A stretch of DNA of 62,585 nt, filler included, from Circinaria calcarea (lineage: Eukaryota), in assembly GCA_051942165.1 (NCBI GenBank). It is 15 parts of 15 records of this genome, joined end to end, with 100 filler letters (N's around TTAATTAATTAA, not from the genome) between each part and the next. Parts side by side here need not be neighbours in the genome. Positions count along the whole stretch, not along the records: positions 58,532 to 62,585 come from JAVECS010002489.1; 14 more parts are not named here. One strand, given 5' to 3'. Under the pieces are notes generated by a model. That model worked only from the letters and a program-made list of their open reading frames with translations, ran no database searches and was not told the origin of the DNA. Positions within the stretch are counted from its first letter, which is position 1. The number at the start of each line of letters is the position of its first letter. The translations under genes were made by a program, and so were the position numbers. Positions 4,103 through 62,585 of the stretch are shown here, in pieces.

Positions 4103-4202
4103 NNNNNNNNNNNNNNNNNNNNNNNNNNNNNNNNNNNNNNNNNNNNTTAATTAATTAANNNNNNNNNNNNNNNNNNNNNNNNNNNNNNNNNNNNNNNNNN
4201 NN
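4103..4202. other. Artificial contig-joining spacer (N44-TTAATTAATTAA-N44); first of 14
   Basis: Identical 100-nt spacer with stops in all six frames also at 8302, 12500, 16693, 20885, 25077, 29268, 33441, 37612, 41781, 45949, 50114, 54278 and 58432. Intervening contig lengths fall from 4102 to 4054 nt. Confidence 0.99.
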
Positions 4203-4727: not shown

Positions 4728-5549
4728 GGTACCAGATGGCCGAATAGTATGTTGAAGAGAAAGCTGCGCAAGCCCAAGATAATCATCCACAATGAAGGAA
4801 AATCATTCTCATCAATGTCATGGAGCAAGCTATCAACGTCCTTTCTCCAAGGGAGAGTCGACCAGAGGATGTGACGTTAGGATTACCTAAGAGGGGAGCT
4901 GGTGTGTGGTGTGCTTAAGCGAAGCAACTCTCCTCCCCATCTCAAGCCTCTGCAATTATTGCAACCGCCCATGGTGCCACGAACTCCCTTAGGCGTGGCG
5001 GACCTGCATTGGGCGGAGAATCAGAACAACGATTGGATGGGCCGTAGAGATCGAAGAACAAAAACCTTCTTCTCCTCTCATCATGCCTACTCGACCAATA
5101 GTTTCAATGTTCGCGCCGCCGTTTCTTGCACGCGCCCACGACATAGCGTCGACCACGTTGGGCAAATGGGCGCTTGCTCTCCACCCAATCACCGCCTTCG
5201 TGCAAGTGATCGCATCTCACATCCCCAGATCTTGAGGCTCTGTCGGCCTTCTCGTTGGCTGGTTCACCGACAGGCATCGACTACTCCTTCAAAGGGTTCG
5301 ACGGGACCAGTCGGTAGTACCTGCATGGTGCTAATTTGTTAAGCTCTCCTGCCGTACCGCCAATAGGTGCTGCTGCCGCCGTGGTGGAGATGCCGTTTTC
5401 TATATGTCAAGGGAGGCCGCGACCTTCTTCGATATACTCATCCTTCTAGAATTGACTCGGCCGTCTCTCATTTTTGTTCGTTGCTCTTCTTCTCTTTCCT
5501 TGCTTTTCCTTCCTATCCGTTGATCGGACAAGCATTCTTTACTATAATA

Positions 5550-8301
5550 ATGGATTCCTACATTCTGCCCGCGACTACATACCAACCCCCACCCCGGCCG
5601 GTCCGGAAACATGTACTTAATACGATAATAGAGGATGAGATGAGCGAGCATGAAGAGGAACCCGTCAGAGGTCGCCGGGCCCGATCGCAAAGCCCAGCTC
5701 CGACACAGTCGAATGGCTCTTGCTCACCGGTGCCGTCGTTAACATCGTCCATTTCATCCTACTGCAGGAACAATCGACGATCTCGAGACTTTGATGATCT
5801 GTACGACATCTCGGATAGCGAATCAGAGCTGGACTCCAATTCACTGCCTACTTTCAAGTTCAGACCAGCGAGTGACTGTTCCACCGTATTCCAGCGGGAT
5901 TCCATGAGCACTAATGGCAGCCGAAGCCGATACCCTTCAATCGTTATCCCAAGCCCAAAAGATTGGCCCGCGGTTCAGAAGCTTCGCAAGAACTCCTCCG
6001 TTCCTCCCACTCCTCCACCGAAGATTCCAATTTCCCCAGCTGTACTTTCCCTGCTTGGGCAAAGTCTGTCATTGTCCACTGCGCCACCTTCTTTGAATGG
6101 CAGTCTTACATCGGACGAGATCACCAACTCCACCGCCCCTCCTACACCCGACACGCAGAGCAGTGCCGATGATGGAGAGCAGTGGGGTCCCATCAAGGTC
6201 GCAGAATCAACGATTGAACTCGAATTGGGGGATGCCGCTCATCATTGGGAGCAGACCATGATCCAACTAAGCCAGCCGATCCCAAACATGGATTCTATTT
6301 CCGTTTCAGTGAGATCTGAAAGTCCAGTGCTTGATCTCGCAGATGACTCTACTCCTATCGAAAAAGGAGTCCAGTTACCCGAAGGCGCATTGGACACCCT
6401 CCGCCACCTGTGCCTGCAGTTGGTATCAGAAACTTCATCCACGATAGATGGTCAAGTTTCCGAGGAGATGCAAGAAGTTTCTGCCGGCATTACCCGTTGC
6501 GAAAGTGTAAATATGACCCCAGCTTCTGCTGTGTCAAGCTACAGCTTTTCTCAGATGAGCGTTCCGTCTCCTGGAGGCTTTTTCTCGTCCTTAGGTGCAA
6601 ATGCGAGGCAAGCATGGTGTGGCTCAGGATCGCCTGTTCTACCATCGTCTGCTGCTGCTGAACGCTTCTATACCGCGCCCTGGCATGCTGATTCTACGAT
6701 GACCATTGAGCGCACTTTGGAGACCGACGACAATAACACCGAAGGACCGCCGACCGCAAGACAGATGCCATTTACTGATAGCATCCCTATATTCTCACCC
6801 AGTTCGATGAGCAATCCACTAACGGAGGCGGACTCTGATATTACTATCAAGGAAATTCAAATCAAGCAAGAAGACAAAGACTTTGATGAAGAGTACACCA
6901 GCAAGATCCAGCAAACCGCAGAATCCAGCCTTGATCGAACGAGTACTTGGTTGGCTGCGCAGAATTCTTACATGAAGGCATTGCGCGAGACGGTTCCGAT
7001 CAACCACTTGACTATTGATTCAGGATTGGCAACACGAAGAGCAAGCAAGCATGTTCGCGAGGATTCCCTTGACTCTCCTATGAAGAAAGCCGTCAAGTTT
7101 CTCGATACCGAGCACGCAAAACGTGAAGGCGCAAAAACTGCCTCGCAACCGAATGCAGATCCTCTATTCTACCATGCTTTTCAACACATCTCGAGTGTTA
7201 CATCGCCTACTGATTCTTTTGTTCACCAGCACGTACGATACGATTCATTGCAAGCCAGCCGTTCCAGTTCACCGAAAGAGCATGTCGACCAACTTTTGGG
7301 ATTCTTCCACACCAATGAAACTGATCGACCAGTACCACTGAGACCCATATCAATGATGCCAGGAAGGGAGTCAGTCGAGGAAACAACCGAGCAAAGAGTC
7401 TTCGCACGTGTCGAAAAAGAGCGTCAAGCCTTGGATCAAGTTGCTTCCACCATGTGGGTTGTTGAAGCCGCTCGTTACTTGAATGGCGGTCGCCTTCTGA
7501 ATAGTCCTGCCAGCGATCTCTTGAACAAAGCTCCATCAATGAAATCCGAGCTAGTTGAGAATACCAGGGTCTTGGATCTTGGAGGCCAGCCGAACTGCGA
7601 CTGGGCCTGGCATTGCGCTCGTGACTTTCCACATGCCAAGATCTACACAGCGACCAGCGATCATCGTGCAATGAACACCAACCTCCATGGGCCCAGCAAT
7701 CACAGTTTGGTCAGAGTCGCCAACCTCTGGCAGCTCCCCTTCCCATCCAACCACTTCGATGTCATATCCGCCCGCTCTCTCTTCACCTTCCTCAAGAACG
7801 AGAAACCTCTCGGCGAAACCGTTGATGAGTACGACATGTGTCTACGTGAATGCATCCGGTGCCTCAAACCAGGCGGCTTCCTCGAGTTCTTCCTGCTCGA
7901 CTCCGAAATTGTCCATTCCGGTCCTCGCGGCACTGCCGTCTCTGTTGAATTCGGCTTCAACCTACGCTCCCGGGGCTACGATCCGGCGCCCACCAAGTCC
8001 TTTCTCGGGCGTTTACGCCGCGCAGGCCTTGTCGACATCAAGCGTGCTTGGACTTTCCTTCCGTCAGGCGCGATGAAACCGGAGGCATACGTGCCACCGG
8101 AGACACCTCCACCGCACGTGTCGATGTACGAAGATAGAATCTTGGAGGCCGTGAGGGGACCTTTGGGGTCCGGAGCTGATGCGGCGAATGTGAGCGGGTT
8201 GGTGGGAAGTTGGGCGTGGGAGCAGTGGATGCTGAAGTTGCAGATGGAGATGGGGAGGGAGAGCGAGGGCTTGTTGGAGGGGGTAGGCGCTGTGCTGGAG
8301 G
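5550..8301 (+). CDS. Conserved fungal protein with long Ser/Pro-rich N-terminus and C-terminal class I SAM-methyltransferase-like domain (3' truncated)
   Basis: Open frame of over 900 codons from ATG 5550, with motifs RVLDLGG, LPFPSNHFDVISAR and ECIRCLKPGGFLEF. Confidence 0.85.
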
Positions 8302-10474
8302 NNNNNNNNNNNNNNNNNNNNNNNNNNNNNNNNNNNNNNNNNNNNTTAATTAATTAANNNNNNNNNNNNNNNNNNNNNNNNNNNNNNNNNNNNNNNNNNN
8401 NAAAGGGAGGGGGAAAGGGAAAGGCAGGAAAAATTAAAGAGAAGATTGTCGGTCGGATAATAAGGAGCAGTATCTTTCTTTTTGGCGGGGGAAGGCCAGG
8501 CTTCTGGAGATAGAGGGTTCATTGACGCAAGTTTTTTTTTCCACCAACCGCAAAACCAGAACCGGCAAGGAAAGGGGTAGCTGAAACCCCCGGACGCTGT
8601 TGAGCAATATGTATGGTGGCATGTATTGCTGTGTGAGTGTGTAAAACGCTTTCTAAAGGTGTGTGGAGAGTGTGGAGCATGGACCACGCAATTTCCCGTA
8701 GGTAACACGTGACTCGGTAAGCCTATATGCTTTCCAACAGCCCTGTTCAAGCGGCTCAGACCCTTTCTTTAACTCGGAAACCCCCCTATTGTTATTTTGG
8801 TTTCTTTCTCATCAGATTTCCCGCTTAATTTTCCCCAATCCCCCCCTTTAGCTAAAGCCTTGGAGTTCTGGATAGCCGTGGCATAACTTGACTAGTCCTT
8901 CCCGGACTCGACGACTGCCTATATGAATATATCTCTAAATCAGGAGTCGCCTGATACTTGTATGAAGGTGATGCATTGGCTCTAGGAAGGCACCGTATCG
9001 GCGAGGTCAACGCTGGTCGACGTACTTTTAGATAATCCAGGGGCGTCCCTCAAATCGGGCTGCTGAATCGGAGATATTCAAGTCCAAAGGCCAAATAAAG
9101 CGAACTCACAGCTAGATGCATCTGTTCATGCAAGCAGAGCATTCCGTCAAGCAGGAAGGTGCAACTTTCAGAATAGCAGTCTTCTTGTAAATCAGTTGGG
9201 GTCACTAGTTCTTTGCTGTTTCAATCTTGCCGGTTGCTGATGATCTCCGTTTGTCCCAGATATTCTTGCCGACAACTGCTTTGTGAGAGAATCTGTTGAA
9301 ATTTCATGATTAACAGCAAGAAGGCTGTTGATTTTTCCCAGAAGCGTATTAGCGTCTTCCTTTGTTATTCTCAAATTTCTTCCGATACAAGTTTGAGAAC
9401 GGTATTTGATAGAACTCAACTTCATTAGTAGTAGTGGAATGGTGACAGTTCCAGATTCACTCCCTCGGCTACAATCAATACGTTTGCTAGTACACATCGT
9501 TGTTGGCAAAGCTTTATCGAAATAAACCGTATTATCAGAGATTGTATTTTGCTTATATCTCCTTGCAGATGGTTACTGGCCTTCGCCTGCCGTCGAGCAG
9601 CCCGATGATGGTATAGACCATTTCGGGTCAATCACTTCTGGGTTGTTTTCAGTTCTTCTGAGGTCTTGTAGCTGCTTGCTAACACCGACATTGAGTAAAG
9701 CCTTATGCCGGTTGCTGACAGCAGTCCGTGTATTTCGAATCCGTAATTCTATAGCCATGGCCTTCACCTTGCAGTATATGCCCCAACTTTACCTAGAGTA
9801 GAAACCTCTGCCGAGAATGAGGCATCAAGGTTACCAAGTCCGTTCTGAAGCGCGCTGAACGATTTATACAATGTTGTCTTGACCTGCAAGAAACCCTTCT
9901 TGTACCTTGTGAAATGTATGGGACTAATCTCATACCCTCCCAGCATTGCCCAACGCCACCGCAAGCATAATTTTGAATCGTCCCATGTCTCTAGCAAGAT
10001 CACACAATGGCTTTTTTTGTTGCTCAAGTATCTAGTTCCATCGAAACCCTCCAGCTTACCTACCTACATACCTACCTTTCCTTCGCCAAACCCAATCAAT
10101 CACAACCGAGTCGACTTTTTGACCCGACGAGTTTATTTTCCCGTAGACTCTCGAACACACACACTCTCTCCCCCCCCCTCTCTCCCTCTCTCTCTGCGCC
10201 ACTCCATGCAAAGAAGAGTATAATATGTACAAGGCCCCAAAGATTCGCCTTTTCTTTCAAAGTGATACCATAGGGGCGTCCGTCTAAACCCGCTCGTTGT
10301 ATCTGTCTACGTATGGTAGTATTATAAGTTCGGTTTTAGGCTTCTAGCAGCCGAAAGGCGCGTTCAAAAACTACGGAGTACCACAGTACAGTACAAGTGA
10401 TAATCCTATTCCCCATACTACAGTATGGTACAGTACAGTACAAGTACAGTACAAGTAATAATCCCAATTCCCCA

Positions 10475-28198: not shown

Positions 28199-29267
28199 AT
28201 GACATCGTTCCTCTCTTCCCTCAATCCCACACCGTCTTTTCCTGCATACACCGGTCCTTATCATGTCGGCACGATAGACGTAGAAATACCAACAGTGGAA
28301 CTTCCCTCGCCAGCGCCAGCGCCAGACCCGACCATTAGCACCGTTAGCTTCCGTTTGTTCTATCCGTGCGAAGTCCCGGCCAAGAAGCCGCATCCCGTTT
28401 ACTGGATCCCTGATCCTCAACATGATATCGCCTCGGCCTATGCGCGATTCCTCGGAGCCTCATCAAGGCTGGCGTAATTCATGGCGTGAGTTCTCTGCGG
28501 GGGTGCCGGAGCGAGATGTCGAAACTCGGAAAAGTCGAATGTTGACAACCGTATGATAGATATCTCCCTAGACTGCTCTACCGCACCACGATTCCTGCCC
28601 TTGGAGATGCGCGAGTCCTACCACCTGCGACCAAAGCGAAGAGATGGCCGGTGATGGTGTTCTCGCATGGCCTGGGTGGGTCTCGCAACATATACAGCCA
28701 CATGGCCGGCTTGTTGGCGAGCTACGGAGTAGTCGTGCTGGCACCGGAACATCGTGATGGCAGTGTACCGAGGACTTATATTGGGGGACCAAAGGGAAGA
28801 CCGGTTGACTACAAGGCGATATCACACGTACAGTCGAAAGAAGTGGAAGATGCCCGCGATGAACAGTTACGAATTCGGCTATGGGAACTGGGCTTGCTAA
28901 ATGAAGCGCTGCTGAAAATTGACAATGGCGAAGAGGTCTCGAACGTACTGTCAAAGGACCACAAGGGAAATTTCTCCATGTTCGCGAGCGGCCTCGATGT
29001 CCATACGCCGGGCAAAATCTCGTGGGCTGGACATTCCTTTGGTGCAGCAACGGTCTTTCAATTTGTCAAGTCCGTCTTCTACCGCTCGTCACCTGTACCA
29101 CCTTCGAATCGATCGCTTTACAAACCCGCCGAGGATTCGGCTATCGTTCGGCAGATCACTCCATCCTCGACAGTGTGCCTTTTAGATCTCTGGGCACTAC
29201 CTCTCCGAAGCGCGGCTACGAAGTGGCTTTGGAACAAACCAGCTCCATGTTATAACCCAGATGGACC
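28199..29267 (+). CDS. Platelet-activating factor acetylhydrolase-like (PAF-AH II) alpha/beta hydrolase, 5' part
   Basis: Motifs YTGPYHVGT, FRLFYP, WPVMVFSHGLGGSRN, EHRDGS and the nucleophile GHSFG. One intron ends at 28559, with two candidate donors (28474, 28486). Confidence 0.9.
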
Positions 29268-34290: not shown

Positions 34291-34759
34291 CAATGTAGGG
34301 TGACGAATTATGAGGGATGTTTTGCCCCTTTTCAATGATTATGTCTTATGAAACTACGGATATGAAAACTTGGACGATGATTTGCTGGTTGTGCTTTTAG
34401 CCTGGAAACGGGAACGGCAACGGAAAGGCATTAGGGATGAAGGGATGATTTATATACGGAATGCTCGGATTATGGCGTCAGGGGAACCTTGAAATGGATT
34501 CTTTTCGGAGATGGAAAACGGGTTTTCGGAAAGCCGGGCGATCTCGCATGCAAAACTTTCCCTTGTCCATTTATTGTGGTTGCGGAACTGGCTGTTGCTG
34601 TTTGCCTGGCTGTTTACTCGGGCGAGAGCTCAATCAATCAATAGGTTCTATTATCTTAAATTCTAGTCTAGTCTGGTACCGGAAAGAATGAAAAATAATG
34701 CCCCCTTTTTCTTTTTTTTTGCTCAAATTTCCCGTCTATTCCATGTGCATCATGATGAT

Positions 34760-35411
34760 GGGTCCCACTGTATGTACACCCCTATTACCTAGGCGTACAC
34801 CCCTATTACCTAGGCGTACACCCCTATTACCTAGGCGTACACCCCAATTACCATAGTTGTACACCCCCCCTAATTAGGTAGTAAATTTGAAATTTTGATA
34901 TTCGCGCTATACGCGCGTTTTTATAATACTATAGATATAAATAATATAATCCTTAGGGATTTATATTGCGACGGTCGAGAGGCCGCCTATCCACCCCCTA
35001 CGATAAATAGTCGAGCCTACGACTAATCGGCGGTCGAAATAGGCCCGCAAGAACCCGCGGAGGACGTATACCAGGCGGTGGAAAGGGTGGAAGAGGTCGT
35101 GGAGCAGCTACAAAATGGCAGAGGAGATAGTGCAGGCAGTAGACGGAGGGAGGCGCATCTATCAATTTCAGAGTGTAATTCCAGACATTGACATCACGGA
35201 TCCAAAAGCAGGAGAATTCAATGCAATTTGTATGGCAGCATCACCTAATTACAATGTCAATCCCTAAGAGTTATATCGTTTATGTTTATAGCGTTATGAG
35301 AAAGTGCGTGTGGCGCGAATATAAATTTTACTACCTAATTAGGGGAGGGTGTGCAACTGTGGTAATTGGGGTGCACGCCTAGGTAATAGGGGTGTACATA
35401 CAGTGGGACCC
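34760..35411. mobile_element. Non-autonomous DNA element with long TIRs (~90 bp); left TIR carries extra 21-bp units
   Basis: The left end GGGTCCCACTGTATGTACACCCCTATTACCTAGGCG...CTAATTAGGTAGTAAA is the reverse complement of ~35323-35411. The interior has no convincing ORF. Confidence 0.85.
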
Positions 35412-38306
35412 TTCAGAGACCATTCAGCGGCGGTTTTGACTGTGACTCTCCGAGACGTGGAGCTCCTGCAACGCGTTATCGTAAATAATCTAGGTCGACT
35501 GCAGTTCATTAGGAGCGTTCTTGCAGGGCCGTCCAAATATTCCGGTGTAGCTGGTCCCGGATCGTATCGCTACCCATTTTGCCTCGCAATACTTGTCCAA
35601 TCTTGAGATCGGCAGCCATGGTGGAAAGTTGCAGCGTCAGATACAGTTGTGGAAATTCTACCCTTAGCTTGCAGTTTTGGTGTACGAGTCAAGCTGGACG
35701 GGGAGGTTACAGGCCAGACAGGAGGGTCCAAACCTTTTTTTTAAAAAAAATGTTCATGTGGAATATCTGAAATGACAATTCGATACATCACCGAGAGAAG
35801 CGTAGGAAGTTTTGAATGGAAAAACGATGCCTGGGGTCAGCCTATAATATATAAGAAATAAGCTTCAATAGCAGGCGCTCCGTTTTCAGGAGGTTAAACA
35901 CTAGTCGCAAGCGGAGGTAACTAGGGTTATAATTTCTATTCCGGTCTTATTGCTTTTAATTTAGAAATACTATATCTATTTTAATTAAGATATCCGGCTG
36001 ATTCCCCATCCGTCCCGATTTCTCTCAAGAAATTCCTTGTAAATTTCTAGGGGTATTACCGCACGCCAGTAAATATTCTAGATGAGGAAAATAGATATTC
36101 TATCCCCCGCCCGCCCTCTCTTCTGTATATAATTTATAATAAACGATTAGAACACACATCAGATCCCCCGAATTCTGTATAATATCTAAGTCCCCGGTCT
36201 CTCCCGGCCTTAATTCCCATTTTCCCCATCCTTCCCGTTCTACACAAGTAACGAACAAAACCCTACGTACCTCCTACCCTCACCCTCGTATTAAAAAACA
36301 ATCCTTACGTCTACCCCAAGGATTCTAGCCTACGAGTAAATTATTACAACCAACTTCCTTTCTTTCTCCTAGAAAAATAAAATCTCTCGGGAACAGATAA
36401 CCGATCCGCCTAGCCAACCCTCTGGCAATATCTCTCACCCTCCAACCTTGGCTCTTGCACTTCTATAGAGATCCGAGCCGATGTACATCACCCCGTCAGA
36501 TGAGTATTTCCCCCCGTCCTCCGTCCCTCTTACCAACGTGACCAGTCCATACATTGTTATAGAATTATAGTGAATTCGCCTCCATTGTAGAAGACTCGAA
36601 TAGATTGACAGAAACGTCTCGTCTCTCAATTGCTTAGCGAAAGGGATTTTGAATATGGGTTGCCTGCTTCATTCCCATAACAATCGACCAGTGACGTTTC
36701 CCATCTCAAACGGCATAGCACATATCACATCACATCGGTTGAAGACTTCCCGTTTCATTTCAATTTTGTGATTTTTCTCTAGGCCAGAAGAAAAGCGCAA
36801 AGCTAGAAAATGCCTCCCCAAAAAATAAACAGACCGGGAGCGAATCACCGGGGTATCTTCGCAGCACACTTGAGCAGAGCCGAGCACAGGACAGGACAGG
36901 ACACACACGAAAACCACACGAAAGCCCCCTCCGTCCCCCATTACCTATTTCCTCCAAACATGACAAGACAAAAATAGCACTACGTCGACATCCGACACCC
37001 CCCCAAAGTCACCCGGTATCAACCCTCCGCCCGAAAGCGAAGGAGCACACGACGATGAGATGGGGTGGGCCTCCCCTTAACCAACCCCTACAAGCAGAAC
37101 CAAGCCCACAAAACACCGAAACACCGAAACACCAAGAGAAAAGACCCGCCCCCGGCATTACCATCCCACCAGATATCGACCCTCCCCAAATCCAAGACGG
37201 CGCAGAGCGCAGCATCAAGGAGGGAGAGGCACACAACGGTGAGTTGATGTCAGATGAGTTGTTACAGGAAAAAGAAGACTAGCAATCGATTCGTGGAAAA
37301 CACCTTTGGACATGGTGCTAGAGAGCTTCGTCGTCGTGGAATATCGTACACCGTATCGGAACAGACAGTTGAAAAGCCTTCCGTAGGAATCGTGAGCCCA
37401 TACGCATCGCATCGCATAGTGTCGTGCATCCACCAAGGCCTTCGCCCGCCAGGATCAATCATTCCTCCATCACCGGCTCGAAATCACCAGTGAAACCCCC
37501 ATTAATCAATTCCGCCGCCATCCGCATTCTCTGACACGGCAAATCATCCATGTCGTACGCTTTCTTGGGGTCATATCCAAGCATGATCATCTTCGCAGTC
37601 GTGGCAACAAANNNNNNNNNNNNNNNNNNNNNNNNNNNNNNNNNNNNNNNNNNNNTTAATTAATTAANNNNNNNNNNNNNNNNNNNNNNNNNNNNNNNNN
37701 NNNNNNNNNNNTAGCGTGGCTTGGCGCCCACACCTGTTTATATTCGCGTGTTCCATGTATCTTACCTCCTTATGTTATTCTAGGTTTATATAGCCCACAA
37801 ATTGCTTTGGTTCTAGGCCTGCTATCTTTGTGAATTGGCTTCACCCTAACAAGTTGAAAGCGAAAAGCTAATATTAAAATAGCTCAAACCGGACTCTAAT
37901 AATAGTAACCTTGAGACCCAGGAAATAAGATGGGACAAAATATGGAGAAAGAGGAGTTTTCCCTTATAATTCTCGAAGAATTGCTATTTCGTGATAAAGA
38001 GAGCAAATATAAGGAATCGGCTGTAGCAGAATTTAATTTTCACGTTGCTACGAAAGCTCTTGAGAAGTACCCCTAAGCCCTTATATTTTCGCAATCGCCA
38101 GAGCTGGTTTCAGATTCTTCGAGTACGTTCATAAGCATTTGCCAATCGTATGGCATTAAGATATATTTATTTAATTAGTTAGTATTATATATCGTTTAAC
38201 TTTATTTTGGTCGCGATTGTCGTTAGTCCGCCTATAGCTCTGGCACAGAATTACCAGAATAAGCTTTTTCCCCGGTGCTCCCTATTTGTTCCCCTCCTTT
38301 AATACT

Positions 38307-38511
38307 CCCCCTCGCTCCCTCGCTGCTCCCTCTAAAGCGGCCTTGTTCTCTTTCCCGACCCGGAACGGCAATTTTCAATCCTAAGTTCGGGGTATATATA
38401 ATATAGAATATCTATATTATATACACCCCGAATTTAGGATTTGAGATTATTATTTTCGATCGGGAAAGGGAGCAGAGCCGCTTTAGAGAGGGCCCCGAGG
38501 GAGTAAGAGGG
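38307..38511. repeat. Degenerate fold-back palindrome (~100-bp arms, ~5-nt loop)
   Basis: Inner 30 bp of each arm match with 2 mismatches (AATCCTAAGTTCGGGGTATATATAATATAG). Outer arms still align (CTCTAAAGCGG, TTTCCCGA). Confidence 0.8.
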
Positions 38512-54377: not shown

Positions 54378-55241
54378 TATACCGACGAAAAATAGTAAAG
54401 GTACAAGGGTTGTGAATGTGCCTGTCGTCGATAATCCGGGGATCATCTGAAGGATAGACACGGAAAGAAAATAAAAGTTTGCTAACTTGGAGAATTGCGC
54501 CACGAGCTGCCGCGGCAAAAAGCTCCAGGCATTGTACTTATTTGAACGTATCATATTGTTTATGTACGGCCGACCAGTTCGCTGATCTATCAATGGCTTA
54601 TGCTGTGCGTGACCCAGCTGGATATGCCTACCATCTGTGCTTGGTGGTATCTCATTAAATCGGGTTATGAACTTCTTCGCTTCCCGACATGCATACTTGA
54701 TTCTTTGAATAGAGGTAGACAACGCTATTCTATGCCGTGCCCATATGTGGTTTTTCGACGAGTATAGGGTGCTAAGTCCCTTTTTCCGAGGACGAATTGG
54801 TAATTCTAAATCTTCCTCGAAGTCAACGGCTGGTAAGACTGTAATGTTGGTCTTGGACTCCTTCCCAGCTTTGGTGCCTGCTGCCATATATATAGGCGGC
54901 GATCCCTGGGTTGTGGATCCAGCTGATTGTATCTCTAACGACTGCACATCCGAATTTTCAAGGTTTCTGGCCAAAAAAGATCTTCGTAGTGAGTAACCTC
55001 TGTCGCGACTGCGCCAAGCTCGGTGTTGACTCGAGGACAGCCGCGGATTTGATGGTGCTACATTCAATTTTGGCTTTTGCGGATCTCCCATGGCTTCTTC
55101 TTGGTAATTACCCTGTCGAGAAATTCCAAGGGGGTGCGACGCATCGCTCCTTCCTAACGGCAGATCTGTAGTATCGTTTGTTCGCCCAATAGGTTGTTCT
55201 GCTTCTCCCTGAGAAGACAAAGAAGCCTGCTTTCCCTCCAT
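54378..55241 (-). CDS. DNF3: P4-type ATPase (phospholipid flippase), DNF3-like, 5' part
   Basis: PPSTDGRHI and LIDQRTGRPYINNMIRSNKYNAWSFLPRQLVAQFSKLANFYFL...LQMIPGLSTTGTFTTLVPL. Confidence 0.9.
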
Positions 55242-55909
55242 CTTTCCATTGTCATTGGCCTCCAGTCTAACATCGCTCTATCTCGACTCCGTGCACAATC
55301 CTGAATTTGACTCTCCTGTGTTATTGTCGATCATCTCCCGTTTCGGATCGAAGGTGGCCTGGTCTGTTGACTTCGAACAGTCGCGGCGAAAGGCGAGAAT
55401 AGGAGGTCGAGTGTCGATAGAATGTCTCTGTTATACCTGGAAGCCCCATAGCTGTGATTCTCTAAGGTCGGAACCCTGATATTTGGAATATTCCTCTAAA
55501 CTGCGTGCGCGACGACGGCAGATGTATTGGCGCAGCAGAGTACGGAGTACGGCTCTGTTTCTGGCACACACCACTATCACCACTCGCGATAGTGGAGCCG
55601 CTGACGTACGCGCCAGGGGCAAAGGTCGCCCTGCATCTGCATGAACCCTTCGTGCAGCGACAGCAATTGGCCAGGACTCGGCCGTCAACTGGCTTAAAAT
55701 GAAATGCCCCCGACCAGATTGAGCAACTCGCGGTCAAACAGATGTCGCAGCGAAGGCAAACAGCCATGTTCCCGGAGATGTAAAGCGAATCATACTTCAT
55801 TCGTTAACAACCAGCATTATCCCATATCCGTTTTGAATTCTTACAGTATCAAGGCAGCTTTCTCTTTGAGCAAGCGGCCGCTTAACCAGCTGGAATACTC
55901 GGGGCACCC

Positions 55910-58431: not shown

Positions 58432-59492
58432 NNNNNNNNNNNNNNNNNNNNNNNNNNNNNNNNNNNNNNNNNNNNTTAATTAATTAANNNNNNNNNNNNN
58501 NNNNNNNNNNNNNNNNNNNNNNNNNNNNNNNAGAAGATCAAAGAGCAGACGCGGCGGGGGTGGTATAGAGAAGTGGCATAATCATGGGCGGGCAGGGACT
58601 GCACAGGGGCCGAAGCATAGGAGAACATTGTACATAAGCAATGCTGGACGACAAGGACAGTTAACATGCCCACATTCGCCAATGCTCTTCACTGGCTAGA
58701 ATGGGATTGCGTTATCGAGCAGTGTCAAGATAGTGCTTGTGTTCAACCAGATCACTCTAAGGAGGAAAATCAGTTGTTCAATCAGCGGGTCTCAACCACG
58801 GATGTGAATGTATTAATTTTCAAACTGATATAATGGAGGCTGATTATTAACCGGCCGATGGCTTGGCTATCAAAACAGTAGAGCTGATTCTCACGACACA
58901 GCCCCAACAAGAAGCAATGAGAGACTGCAAAACCTAATACTGTTGGTAATTGCTGGTAATCCTCCATCCTCCAACTGACAGGCTGACCCCAAGCCCATAC
59001 CTAATCAATCGAACGGAATATTGAGTATTTAATATTTGATTCAATAATTTAGCTCGCGTTTACAACAATGCATTGATTTTGGAGTTTAATATATTTATAA
59101 TATAATACCCTTTATTCTCAACCTTGTAAAATATGTTTGAACAACCGTGTTCATACTTTCATATTAGCCCTAGCTATGCAAATAGTGAATCGAATACCTG
59201 TTGTTAAGCAAGCAGAACCAATTTACTGACTTAGTCGATGACCCACCATTGGTAGAGTATATATTCTCCAGTAAATCGATGCTCCCGGACCATATCTGCT
59301 CTTTTCTCCGACAGCTCAACCTTGGCCAAATCGTCTGCTGTCAACAGACATCTCCACCTACAACGCGTATAACCTTCTTCAGTTTCTTTGATTGAGCATC
59401 TCCACGAGCAGGGCGTGCTTGGAGGCATTGGATTTTGGATGAGAAAAGACGATGGCCGCCGATCCTGCAAAGTTGCTGGGAAAAGTCTCCTC

Positions 59493-60297
59493 TCAGGTTT
59501 GCGCCAGGCCTGAATTGTGGAGAGTAACCAAATAGCCCGTGCTGTCATGCGTCACAACGGAACTGTGCGGGACCGGAATTTGAGGGTGAGAAGTCAGTTT
59601 TAGACCGGAATAGAACATGGCGAGACCGAGACCGAGACCGAGACCTTTGAGATAAAGAAACGGCGGCGAAACAGGCATTCAAGCCTTGGATTCGGCTGAA
59701 TTAGGTGCGTCTGTGGTCGGTAAGACTGCTTTGTCCCTAATGCCGTATGATGCCAGATATGTTAAAGGGCCCCCCGGAGATCCCGATGTCTGCAATCTGG
59801 CCCCCGGGCGAAAAGCATTGATTTAGGGATGGGCAGTTAATTCATAGGGACACTTTCATCCTATGCTGAGAGGTGGTAATGACACTTGGAAATTCAGAGG
59901 CCTATCCACCGCAACAGTCTCAGCCATATATTCCCAGATAATATATCCCCTTGAGATCTGTTTCCGCCTCCGACAAGCTGGGCATGCGGTGTCTCCAGTC
60001 TTCTAGATGCTACTTCAGCTCTGTGGTCCTGATAATTTCTTTTTCGCATCTTCATCAAGCATGCGAATCTTCTTCTAGAACCTTAATCTCAAGCATCGAT
60101 TCTAGAAGGCCGAAAAAGAATTTTTATGCGAACGGCCGCCGGTATCCAATTCATCCCCGCTAGTAGAAGGCTCCCAGAGCGACGTCTCAACATTTACGCT
60201 GAGGGTAGGTGAGAAAATCACCACCGTCCCATTCCTCAGGGTAAAGGTAAGGGATGACGATTGGGGCTGTAGCACCCGTGAAAAGCAAATGTTCCAT
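59493..60297 (-). pseudogene. Decayed gene resembling the N-terminus of fungal HET-domain proteins
   Basis: MEHL...IPYL...WDGGDFLTYPQRKC*...*KFFFGLLESML matches the MDHL..PYL..YDGG.F..YP.R.GW..WLFFGLL pattern as I recall it. Many in-frame stops; 3' limit approximate. Confidence 0.5.
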
Positions 60298-60659
60298 CAC
60301 GCAACTGTTTGATATCAACCAACTCCCCAGGGCGAAATGAGAAACGTACATTGTAAGCAGCGAGCTTGAAAACAATGAATCTATATCTTACCTTTGGGCT
60401 AAGCCTGTCTAGAAGTATTGTAATAAGTTGCTTCAAACTTGACGCTGAGAGTTTCCTGAATCTGATTCTTTAAATTCGCCTATATCACATTAGCGTGCCC
60501 ACAAACGAACCTAGGGTTTTGCGCTGCAGTAAATCTACTAAGCCTGACGTATCTCGAAGTTGTAAAACATTGCGATTTGTATTCTCTGTCCGCAAGCACC
60601 CACCAAATATACCCTTCCACTGCAAAGCTTAGGACCGGCAGCGTTTAATAGTGCCCAGC

Positions 60660-61931
60660 ATGGCGGAGCAATTGGTGATGCGGGGAACCCTCGAGGGCCA
60701 CAGTGGATGGGTGACCAGCTTGGCGACTTCGTTGGAGAAGTAAGCCATTGCCATAGGAATGACTGAGGTTTTCAAGCTCACAGGGATTCAGCCCAAATAT
60801 GCTTCTTTCGGGGAGCCGTGACAAGTCCCTCATTATCTGGAACCTCACCCGCGACGAGCAAAACTACGGATACCCAAAGCGAAGTCTACACGGCCACTCC
60901 CACATCGTCTCTGACTGCGTATGTGACCATGGTCCCTAAAGCCATGATTGGGAGTCGAGCTGATACGCTATTTCATAGGTCATCTCCTCTGACGGTGCTT
61001 ACGCTCTATCTGCCTCGTGGGACAAGACCCTTCGACTATGGGAACTCTCAACCGGCGCAACAACACGTCGCTTCGTCGGGCATACCAATGATGTTCTGTC
61101 GGTCTCCTTCTCCGCTGACAACCGACAAATTGTCTCCGGCTCGCGCGATCGTACAATCAAGCTATGGAACACCTTAGGAGACTGCAAATTCACCATCACT
61201 GAGAAAGGACACACCGAATGGGTCTCCTGTGTACGGTTCAGCCCAAACCCCCAGAACCCCGTTATAGTAAGCGCGGGATGGGATAAACTCGTCAAGGTAG
61301 GTAGCTTGACTTTGCCTCTTGGGGTGTGGAATATTCCCTGCCGGGTCACAGGATGCTTTGCTATTTACAAGTATTTGCTACTTCAGAGCCGATAGGCCAT
61401 GAGACAATCATTCACCATATGCACTGATGACCACCCGCTCTTATATCATTAAAAACTATCACTTATTACCAAATACGAGCCTGGCTAACCCCACATTCTC
61501 CCTAGGTCTGGGAACTCGCCTCCTGCCGCATCCAGACTGACCACATTGGCCACACTGGCTACATCAACACCGTCACTATCTCCCCTGACGGCTCTCTCTG
61601 CGCCTCCGGCGGCAAGGACGGTACTACCATGCTGTGGGATCTCAATGAGTCCAAGCACCTTTACTCCCTAAGCGCCGGCGACGAGATCCACGCTCTTGTA
61701 TTCTCCCCCAACCGTTACTGGCTATGCGCTGCCACATCCAGCAGCATCATCATCTTCGATCTCGAAAAGAAGAGCAAGGTGGATGAGCTGAAGCCCGAGT
61801 ACGTGGCCGTTGGCAAGAAGAGCCGTGAGCCGGAGTGTGTCAGTTTGGCGTGGAGTGCGGATGGGCAGACGCTGTTTGCCGGGTACACAGATAATTTGAT
61901 CCGGGCTTGGGGAGTCATGTCGAGGGCTTAA
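60660..61931 (+). CDS. cpc-2: RACK1 / G-protein beta-like WD40 ribosomal protein (Asc1/Cpc2)
   Basis: [24 protein letters not shown]...[16 protein letters not shown]. Introns 60740-60791, 60919-60978 and 61297-61505. Confidence 0.98.
61344..61432 (+). ncRNA. snR24: U24 (snR24) box C/D snoRNA in RACK1 intron 3
   Basis: Terminal stem GGTCA/TGACC; guide plus D' box TATTTGCTACTT-CAGA as in yeast U24; C'-like ATGAGA; D box CTGA at 61424-61427. U24 is known to reside in ASC1/cpc-2 introns. Confidence 0.85.
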
Positions 61932-62585
61932 GTTAGCGCTTCAAGCGGTTGGAGACGGGAAGTTGGTGGAATAGCTGGGGATGCCATATCTGAAAAGCTA
62001 GCACAGGCAGTGTAGCAATAGATACACTCCGTGGCTTTGAGAAGAATGGAAATGTATCCAATCACCCAGCTTACTGCTAAGATCGGTCTTACGGGATATC
62101 CACTTGGTCATTACATATAATTCCGAGATTCTAAGATTAGTCTTAGCATCTCGGAATTATGTGTAATGTCCAAGTGGATGTCCCGTGTGACCCATCTCAG
62201 CGGTAGCTGGGTGATTGGATACATTTCCATTCTTCTCAAAGCCGCGGAGTGTATCTATTGCTAGACTGCCTGTACTAGCCTTTCAGATATGGCATCCCCA
62301 GCTATTCCGCCAACTTCCTGTCTCCACGTACTTAGAACGCTAACTTAAGCCCTCGACATGACTCCCCAAGCCCGGATCAGATTATCCGTGTACCCCGCGA
62401 ACAGCGTCTGCCCATCCGCACTCCACGCCAAACTGACACACTCCGGCTCGCGGCTCTTCTTGCCAACGGCCACGTACTCGGGCTTCAGCTCATCCACCTT
62501 GCTCTTCTTTTCGAGATCGAAGATGATGATGCTGCTGGATGTGGCAGCGCATAGCCAGTAACGGTTGGGGGAGAATACAAGAGCG
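61691..62585. repeat. Long palindrome (arms >=445 bp) centred at 62138/62139
   Basis: Centre reads CTAAGA-TTAG-TCTTAG; arms align throughout with one 1-nt indel. Confidence 0.97.
62345..62585 (-). CDS. cpc-2: Second, inverted copy of the RACK1 3' coding region (runs off window end)
   Basis: Reverse complement encodes [10 protein letters not shown]...WGVMSRA*, identical in protein to 61691-61931, with 5 synonymous differences. Confidence 0.8.

Follow-up and report, generated by a model that had tools for sequence, protein, structure and literature searches.

Does a draft contig of Circinaria calcarea (assembly GCA_051942165.1) that runs through a RACK1 gene and then returns along a mirror image of its 3′ end depict a structure present in the sequenced DNA, or one made during library preparation or assembly? 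RACK1 is an essential, usually single-copy ribosomal scaffold gene, and the preliminary description of this locus, made from the sequence alone, had inferred there two functional convergent copies forming a nearly spacer-less palindrome.

Results

The window, i.e. the whole stretch of 62,585 nucleotides that was analyzed, is made of 15 size-sorted draft contigs (4102, 4099 ... 4054, 4054 bp) joined by 14 linkers (N44-TTAATTAATTAA-N44). The last of these contigs according to the linker positions (58532..62585, 4054 bp) bears the palindrome, which occupies its right end, position 62585 being the contig end. Since the 15 contigs lie within 48 bp of each other in length, the assembly probably comprises thousands of contigs, and its source is presumably a short-read draft or a metagenome-derived bin and not a long-read assembly. 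The all-versus-all comparison detected no similarity among the 15 contigs, and only one of them (1/15) carries a terminal palindrome. The tRNA scan of contig 58532-62585 detected no tRNA. The palindrome also sits right where a 4-kb contig of a very fragmented draft stops, and this location counts against a real duplication.

A complete RACK1 gene of the cpc-2/Asc1 type (copy 1) is located on the + strand at 60660..61931. Its four exons (60660-60739, 60792-60918, 60979-61296 and 61506-61931), whose borders were deduced from the sequence with GT..AG introns (the end of exon 2 at 60918 being set by eye), sum to 951 nt including the TAA stop codon (61929-61931). Over its 141 aa, the last exon aligns with positions 176-316 of two solved chains of 316 residues, 7olc_A (E 2e-97) and 7r81_h2 (E 4e-97), two entries that we take to be filamentous ascomycete ribosome structures; human RACK1 comes next (1e-78) and yeast RACK1 is found at 1e-55. 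The visible part of a second copy lies on the − strand at 62346..62585 and includes the last 79 codons and the stop codon, whose TAA reads TTA at 62346-62348 on the + strand. WD40 domains (PF00400) were detected by Pfam in exon 3, in exon 4 and in the copy-2 fragment. After translation, the last 79 residues and the TAA stop are identical in both arms, and 414 nt separate the two stop codons. The 2.1 kb located upstream of RACK1 contain no long frame and have no tblastx match in 80 related fungal loci.

The inverted-repeat search and the global alignment agree that the 3′ coding end and 3′ flank of RACK1 are mirrored about 62138/62139, as initially described. The left arm (61691..62138, + strand) consists of the 241 nt that close the CDS, stop codon included, and of 207 nt of 3′ flank, and the right arm (62139..62585, − strand) is its mirror image up to the contig end. 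The self-match of the palindrome (896 nt, 93.5%, E=0) is far beyond chance. The inverted-repeat search divides it into outer arms of 381 nt with 95% identity (61691-62071/62205-62585) and inner arms of 65 nt with 86% identity and 4 nt between them (62072-62136/62141-62205). At the axis (62131..62146), a 6-nt inverted repeat (62131-62136/62141-62146) surrounds a 4-nt loop (62137-62140), and the tip of the hairpin in the DNA fold is a 6-bp stem with this 4-nt loop, within the limit of 4 nt previously given for the loop. This stem and loop are indistinguishable from the palindrome itself with two mismatches. The junction between the arms is base-contiguous, without any Ns.

A 625-nt diverged core (61826..62450) holds all 29 arm differences. 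The longest exact inverted runs within this core are 50, 42 and 38 nt, the latter pairing 62033-62070 with 62206-62243. Folded as single-stranded DNA, the region 61932-62345 reaches −203 kcal/mol (z = −33). Rfam matches to miRNA families were obtained at the axis, all of them below the gathering score (best 59 bits vs 100); an assignment of the axis to a miRNA family was rejected, these sub-threshold matches being a generic hairpin effect. The region 62100-62180 is devoid of exact even palindromes of more than 4 nt, the longest reaching 4 nt, and a de Bruijn inverted loop as a pure graph artefact was rejected on this count. Another near spacer-less palindrome, also imperfect, is found in contig 10 of the window (38307-38407 / 38411-38511, 76%), with unique flanks on both sides; the centre of the RACK1 palindrome has no similarity to this element.

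The global alignment of 61691-62138 with the reverse complement of 62139-62585 revealed 28 substitutions and one 1-nt indel. The preliminary description, relying on a manual count, had attributed about 22 substitutions and one indel to the non-coding flank: the indel is present and the number of substitutions was a near match, 23 being measured in the 207 nt. Its other counts were recovered as they stood, i.e. five differences in the last 106 coding nt (CGT/CGC, TTT/TTC, GCC/GCG, ACA/ACG and TTG/CTG), all synonymous, no difference at all between the arms in the distal 135 nt (61691-61825), and changes that go both ways and include transversions (20 transitions and 8 transversions). It had also considered that the differences do not follow a RIP pattern, which is corroborated by the proportion of transversions (8/28) and by the context of the transitions, 9/20 of them being at CpG and only 6/20 in a CpA/TpG context. 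As far as this spectrum tells, RIP is not the main source of the arm differences.

The distribution of the substitutions is uneven: only 5 of the 28 fall within the coding part, which represents 240 of the 447 nt (54% coding; P=1e-4), and all five are synonymous (5/5, P=0.002, given a 0.29 chance per random change). These two deviations uphold the earlier statement that the palindrome is not a simple fold-back chimera. The pattern shows that the arm mutations look natural and filtered by purifying selection, and that they do not look like sequencing noise. On the sequence evidence, the two arms are naturally diverged versions of one sequence, which may be paralogues, alleles, or orthologues from two genomes sampled together. 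The five coding differences were compared with 57 distinct relatives, in which these sites are saturated and the polarity of the changes is not readable. The transitions do not show any significant wobble bias that would favor a hairpin in the + strand RNA (13 vs 7, hand count).

The preliminary description had also proposed a gradient of divergence along the arms. This claim did not survive measurement: divergence is flat at about 12% at neutral sites and then drops abruptly, without any slope. From the axis outward, the flank diverges by 16.2% (62071-62138), 4.3% (62001-62070) and 14.5% (61932-62000), and the last 35 codons carry five changes on 30 synonymous sites (16.5%). The 45 distal codons carry none on 38 synonymous sites, where 2.8 to 6.3 would be expected (P=0.06 to 0.002, respectively), so that the drop is mildly unexpected. 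These distal codons are also more conserved among relatives (third-position mismatch of 0.35 vs 0.54, in the 57 distinct relatives from the 70/80 loci with full ungapped matches).

Furthermore, the identical tract is bounded on one side only, the other side being cut by the contig end. The main reservation is one of ascertainment, the contig end being itself set by the point at which the arms can no longer be told apart. Past the last discriminating site (62450), the shared sequence that an assembler can append is limited to roughly the length of a single read or k-mer; the 135 nt fit this length, and the tip is therefore silent on the extent of the identity. The suggestion that the identity of the distal arms caused the break of the contig is plausible. 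The length of the 135-nt tip corresponds to no common default k, and would be explained equally well by an overhang limited by read length and by a branching of the graph at 61690/61691. That the contig ends at 62585, opposite 61691, points to such a branching, which would reflect either the next site at which the copies differ or the limit of the duplicated segment.

The last RACK1 exon was scanned against public metagenome contigs, and 80 fungal RACK1 loci were obtained, the sequence available downstream being at least 500 nt for 65 of them and at least 1000 nt for 55, lengths that exceed the 414 nt between the two stop codons of the window. The closest of the 80 has about 78% DNA identity over the gene, and none of them has a homologous 3′ flank. 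The same arrangement, which the preliminary description had proposed to look for in related genomes, did not turn up: a second copy of the last exon was found within the fetched flanks of 0/80 loci, a result that is silent on the present genome itself. A limited literature search found no report of a RACK1 duplication or of a tail-to-tail arrangement of this gene in ascomycetes.

Among public runs, a single one, from a biocrust metagenome, has words in common with the contig (share 0.07). A relative that is about 93% identical is represented there by one unbranched contig of 1807 nt, which shows 102 differences and 10 gaps over 60459-62054. It starts in the 5′ UTR, and its last 197 nt, past 62054, are too diverged to align, the first 30 letters of this continuation being loosely alignable, by eye, to both arms. 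This run contains no second contig over 61660-62067, which weighs against a duplication, and does not cover 62068-62585, a gap that is uninformative about the organism of the window itself. The two arms resemble each other more than either resembles this continuation, and therefore the split of the arms is younger than the split from the relative, so that the state of the relative does not decide the case.

Discussion

We estimate at roughly 0.5 the probability that the sequenced DNA held a real fold-back, i.e. a tail-to-tail inverted duplication whose minimal extent is the final 240 coding nt of RACK1 plus the 207-nt 3′ flank. Its second copy may be a whole gene or a mere 448-nt fragment. Such a duplication could have arisen when a broken or nascent 3′ end folded onto itself at the 6-nt inverted repeat (62131-62146) and went on to copy its own strand, as happens in the hairpin-primed or ODIRA-type duplications of yeast. 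The divergence of about 12% at neutral sites would have built up after the duplication and, by interrupting the centre, would now hinder the extrusion of a cruciform. The contig would stop at 62585 because the arms are identical over more than a read or a k-mer, or because the next branch lies at 61690/61691. Extracts of PMC10622511 and PMC4689423 indicate that fold-back and ODIRA inverted duplications are recognized by a short inverted repeat where the copies meet.

The way in which assemblers handle palindromes also bears on this question. As stated in an excerpt of PMC9528984, an inverted loop in a de Bruijn graph needs a k-mer with a palindromic (k-1)-suffix. Since the axis is devoid of exact palindromes of more than 4 nt, k-mers or reads bridging this axis must have existed in the data. 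Moreover, the longest exact inverted run of the core being 50 nt, the 625-nt core forms a single unbranched path for any k >50. The palindrome of contig 10, with its unique flanks, indicates that such structures exist in this genome and were assembled through. A real duplication has a cost of its own: a spacer-less palindrome that holds an essential, usually single-copy gene would have had to outlast the accumulation of about 12% neutral divergence.

The preliminary description had gone further. Developed in full, a scenario along its lines would have two convergent RACK1 genes in a biocrust or lichen-type ascomycete, with bodies kept identical by conversion and a core of about 625 nt that drifted and thereby disarmed the cruciform. 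Read-through of either gene would then yield a hairpin longer than 400 bp, a potential input to the silencing of this ribosomal scaffold gene by RNA. We consider this complete scenario unlikely.

Artefacts that need a second genotype (a mis-join or chimera on the one hand, a walk-back on the other hand) are, taken together, a substantial possibility that falls short of even odds. The mis-join, taken on its own, appears rather doubtful: it would bring together two diverged haplotypes, strains or sibling species with one RACK1 each, the contig running out along one of them and back along the other, either because the template switched between molecules at the 6-nt inverted repeat while the DNA was amplified or the library prepared, or because the assembler made a U-turn via unused bubble branches. 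The differences between the arms do resemble allelic or orthologous variation, being synonymous or non-coding and including CpG transitions, but a divergence of about 12% at neutral sites is very high for alleles of one species, and the mutual dissimilarity of the 15 contigs means that there is no direct sign of haplotigs in the window. The join is sited at a contig end of a highly fragmented draft and RACK1 is single-copy in 80/80 related loci, and both points favor a mis-join. A weak hint in the same direction is that contig ends fall within long open frames in 13/30 cases, compared to 23% at random positions (P=0.012), with Pfam domains in 4/13 of these frames; an excess of this kind would arise where the graph merges exons that are conserved between two related genomes. 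Allelic palindromes of a bdelloid rotifer draft reportedly vanished in a later chromosome-scale assembly. These ‘palindromes’ made of allelic regions, presented with a misassembly warning in an extract of PMC7953838, are the precedent for a mis-join. The junction itself is more difficult to explain in this way. It is devoid of Ns and therefore is not a scaffolding join, and its axis without any exact palindrome of more than 4 nt would oblige a graph loop to rely on real bridging k-mers. The weak point is that two genotypes would have to be joined at the mirror position, with a rare chimera beating the true continuation in coverage. Furthermore, the arms of a fold-back artefact are normally identical, both deriving from a single molecule.

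A walk-back would start from a natural imperfect hairpin (±70 to 105 nt) in the 3′ flank of RACK1, from which an assembler using a small k would have re-entered the left arm via the 38-nt run. This route finds some support in the comparable internal palindrome of contig 10 (±101 nt, 76%) and in the fact that divergence peaks in the inner 68 nt (16%), which the perfect 38-nt run follows. However, the central sequence is unlike the contig-10 element, and the route requires both k <=38 and a path that reuses visited nodes. It also needs a second genotype to account for the 17 differences beyond 62244, without which the return would be identical to the left arm, and we regard it as quite improbable. 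A fold-back chimeric read, resulting from whole-genome amplification, a missed hairpin adapter or a nanopore template-complement read, with uncorrected errors in the second arm, has only a minute chance of being the cause. Amplification and long-read chemistry are known, from extracts of PMC6218980 and PMC13265396, to yield spacer-less fold-backs at contig ends. However, the errors of such a read would be even and indel-rich, whereas 28 substitutions were found for one indel, with a deficit in the coding part (P=1e-4) and only synonymous coding changes (5/5, P=0.002); the thousands of contigs that we infer are also unlike a long-read assembly. The arm differences thus bring a single-molecule fold-back chimera with read errors close to exclusion.

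The kind of structure discussed here is already known. If the fold-back duplication is real, it would be a new and unusually old gene-bearing example, i.e. a natural and aged fold-back duplication carrying an essential, normally single-copy ribosomal scaffold gene. It would then offer a tractable case for the stability of palindromes, for the exchange between arms in fungi and for a built-in hairpin of a gene against itself. If it is an artefact, it would warn that what passes for a gene-bearing palindrome may be a diverged mirror image at a contig end of a fragmented or mixed-genotype draft; its identical tip would be a product of the assembler.

Among known systems, the RACK1 palindrome is similar to the duplications formed in yeast by fold-back (hairpin-primed) or ODIRA mechanisms in that its inverted copies meet at a 6-nt repeat with a 4-nt loop and almost no spacer. 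Extracts of PMC10622511 and PMC4689423 describe a short interrupted inverted repeat at these yeast junctions. However, those duplications are recent, having occurred in the laboratory or in tumours, and their arms are identical, whereas the arms described here have diverged by about 12% at neutral sites. Given such a divergence, the fold-back event would be old or would involve two different templates.

The palindromes of the human Y chromosome have kilobase spacers and arms that are nearly identical throughout. Like the gene-bearing palindromes of sex chromosomes with arm-to-arm gene conversion that an extract of PMC7953838 cites, the RACK1 palindrome has a gene in each arm, and its abrupt block of identity could represent a conversion tract. 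It differs from them by the lack of spacer, by an overall difference of 6.5% between the arms and by a visible identity of 135 nt that is cut by the contig end. The allelic palindromes of the bdelloid rotifer draft (extract of PMC7953838) also show diverged homologous copies mirrored in a fragmented draft. However, the rotifer case concerns gene order at the scale of scaffolds, whereas at the RACK1 join one base follows the next with no intervening Ns, and the symmetry holds down to the single nucleotide.

According to the inverted-duplication model, hairpin-RNA and miRNA loci are born from their own target genes. Similarly, the inverted copy of a part of RACK1 would give a long hairpin in case of read-through; unlike the loci of this model, it is known from DNA alone, and its Rfam matches are sub-threshold. 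Finally, like the chimeras due to amplification or to missed adapters (extracts of PMC6218980 and PMC13265396), the palindrome folds back without a spacer where a sequence ends. However, those chimeras derive from one molecule and differ between arms by errors only, whereas the differences between the arms of the RACK1 palindrome follow a selective and mutational pattern.

Results and discussion

The two arms of the palindrome at the end of the RACK1 contig, which meet at 62138/62139, differ in base composition within its diverged core. The left arm (61826-62138) has a lower GC content than the right arm (62139-62450), 0.489 vs 0.522, and fewer CpG (14 vs 18). In addition, a hand count from the alignment of the arms places the A/T state on the left arm in 14 of the 20 transitions between them. 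Taken as a whole, this bias places most of the CpG losses on the left arm, the one joined to the complete RACK1 gene.

For positions 60459-62054, a biocrust metagenome run contains a relative with about 93% identity over the RACK1 gene, its introns and the 5′ UTR, and single exons are matched in the same run by more distant fungi.

The window comprises 15 contigs ordered by decreasing length (4102 to 4054 bp) and separated by N44-TTAATTAATTAA-N44 linkers at 14 places (4103-4202, 8302-8401 and so on up to 58432-58531); any feature crossing a linker is non-contiguous DNA. The inverted-repeat search of the window returned a "palindrome" at 58432-58531, which is simply the linker sequence. A second imperfect, nearly spacer-less palindrome lies in contig 10 (38307-38407 / 38411-38511), with arms of 101 nt, 76% complementarity, a spacer of 3 nt and an AT-rich, TATA-like centre. 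It is internal to its contig and has unique flanks; comparison of the window with itself revealed no similarity between it and the RACK1 flank. Contig 9 (34756-34870 and 35343-35415) contains an array of a 21-nt unit (4.4 copies, 34774-34867) and, about 500 nt away, inverted copies of this unit facing it. Together they make up a roughly 660-bp element of foldback- or MITE-like type.

Thirteen of the 30 contig ends lie within frames of at least 100 codons without stop; for internal positions chosen at random, the share is 23% (P = 0.012). Pfam domains occur in four of these 13 frames: a methyltransferase within an open frame of 978 codons (5367-8300), a PAF acetylhydrolase (28546-29265), a cytochrome P450 (46051-46926) and the N-terminus of a P4-ATPase (54378-55277, minus strand).

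RACK1 intron 3 (61297-61505) is long (209 nt). A search against Rfam, snoRNAs included, found no family at E ≤ 1 in this intron and, in the rest of the contig, none at this threshold except the hairpin at the axis. In yeast, the RACK1 orthologue harbors a snoRNA within its intron.
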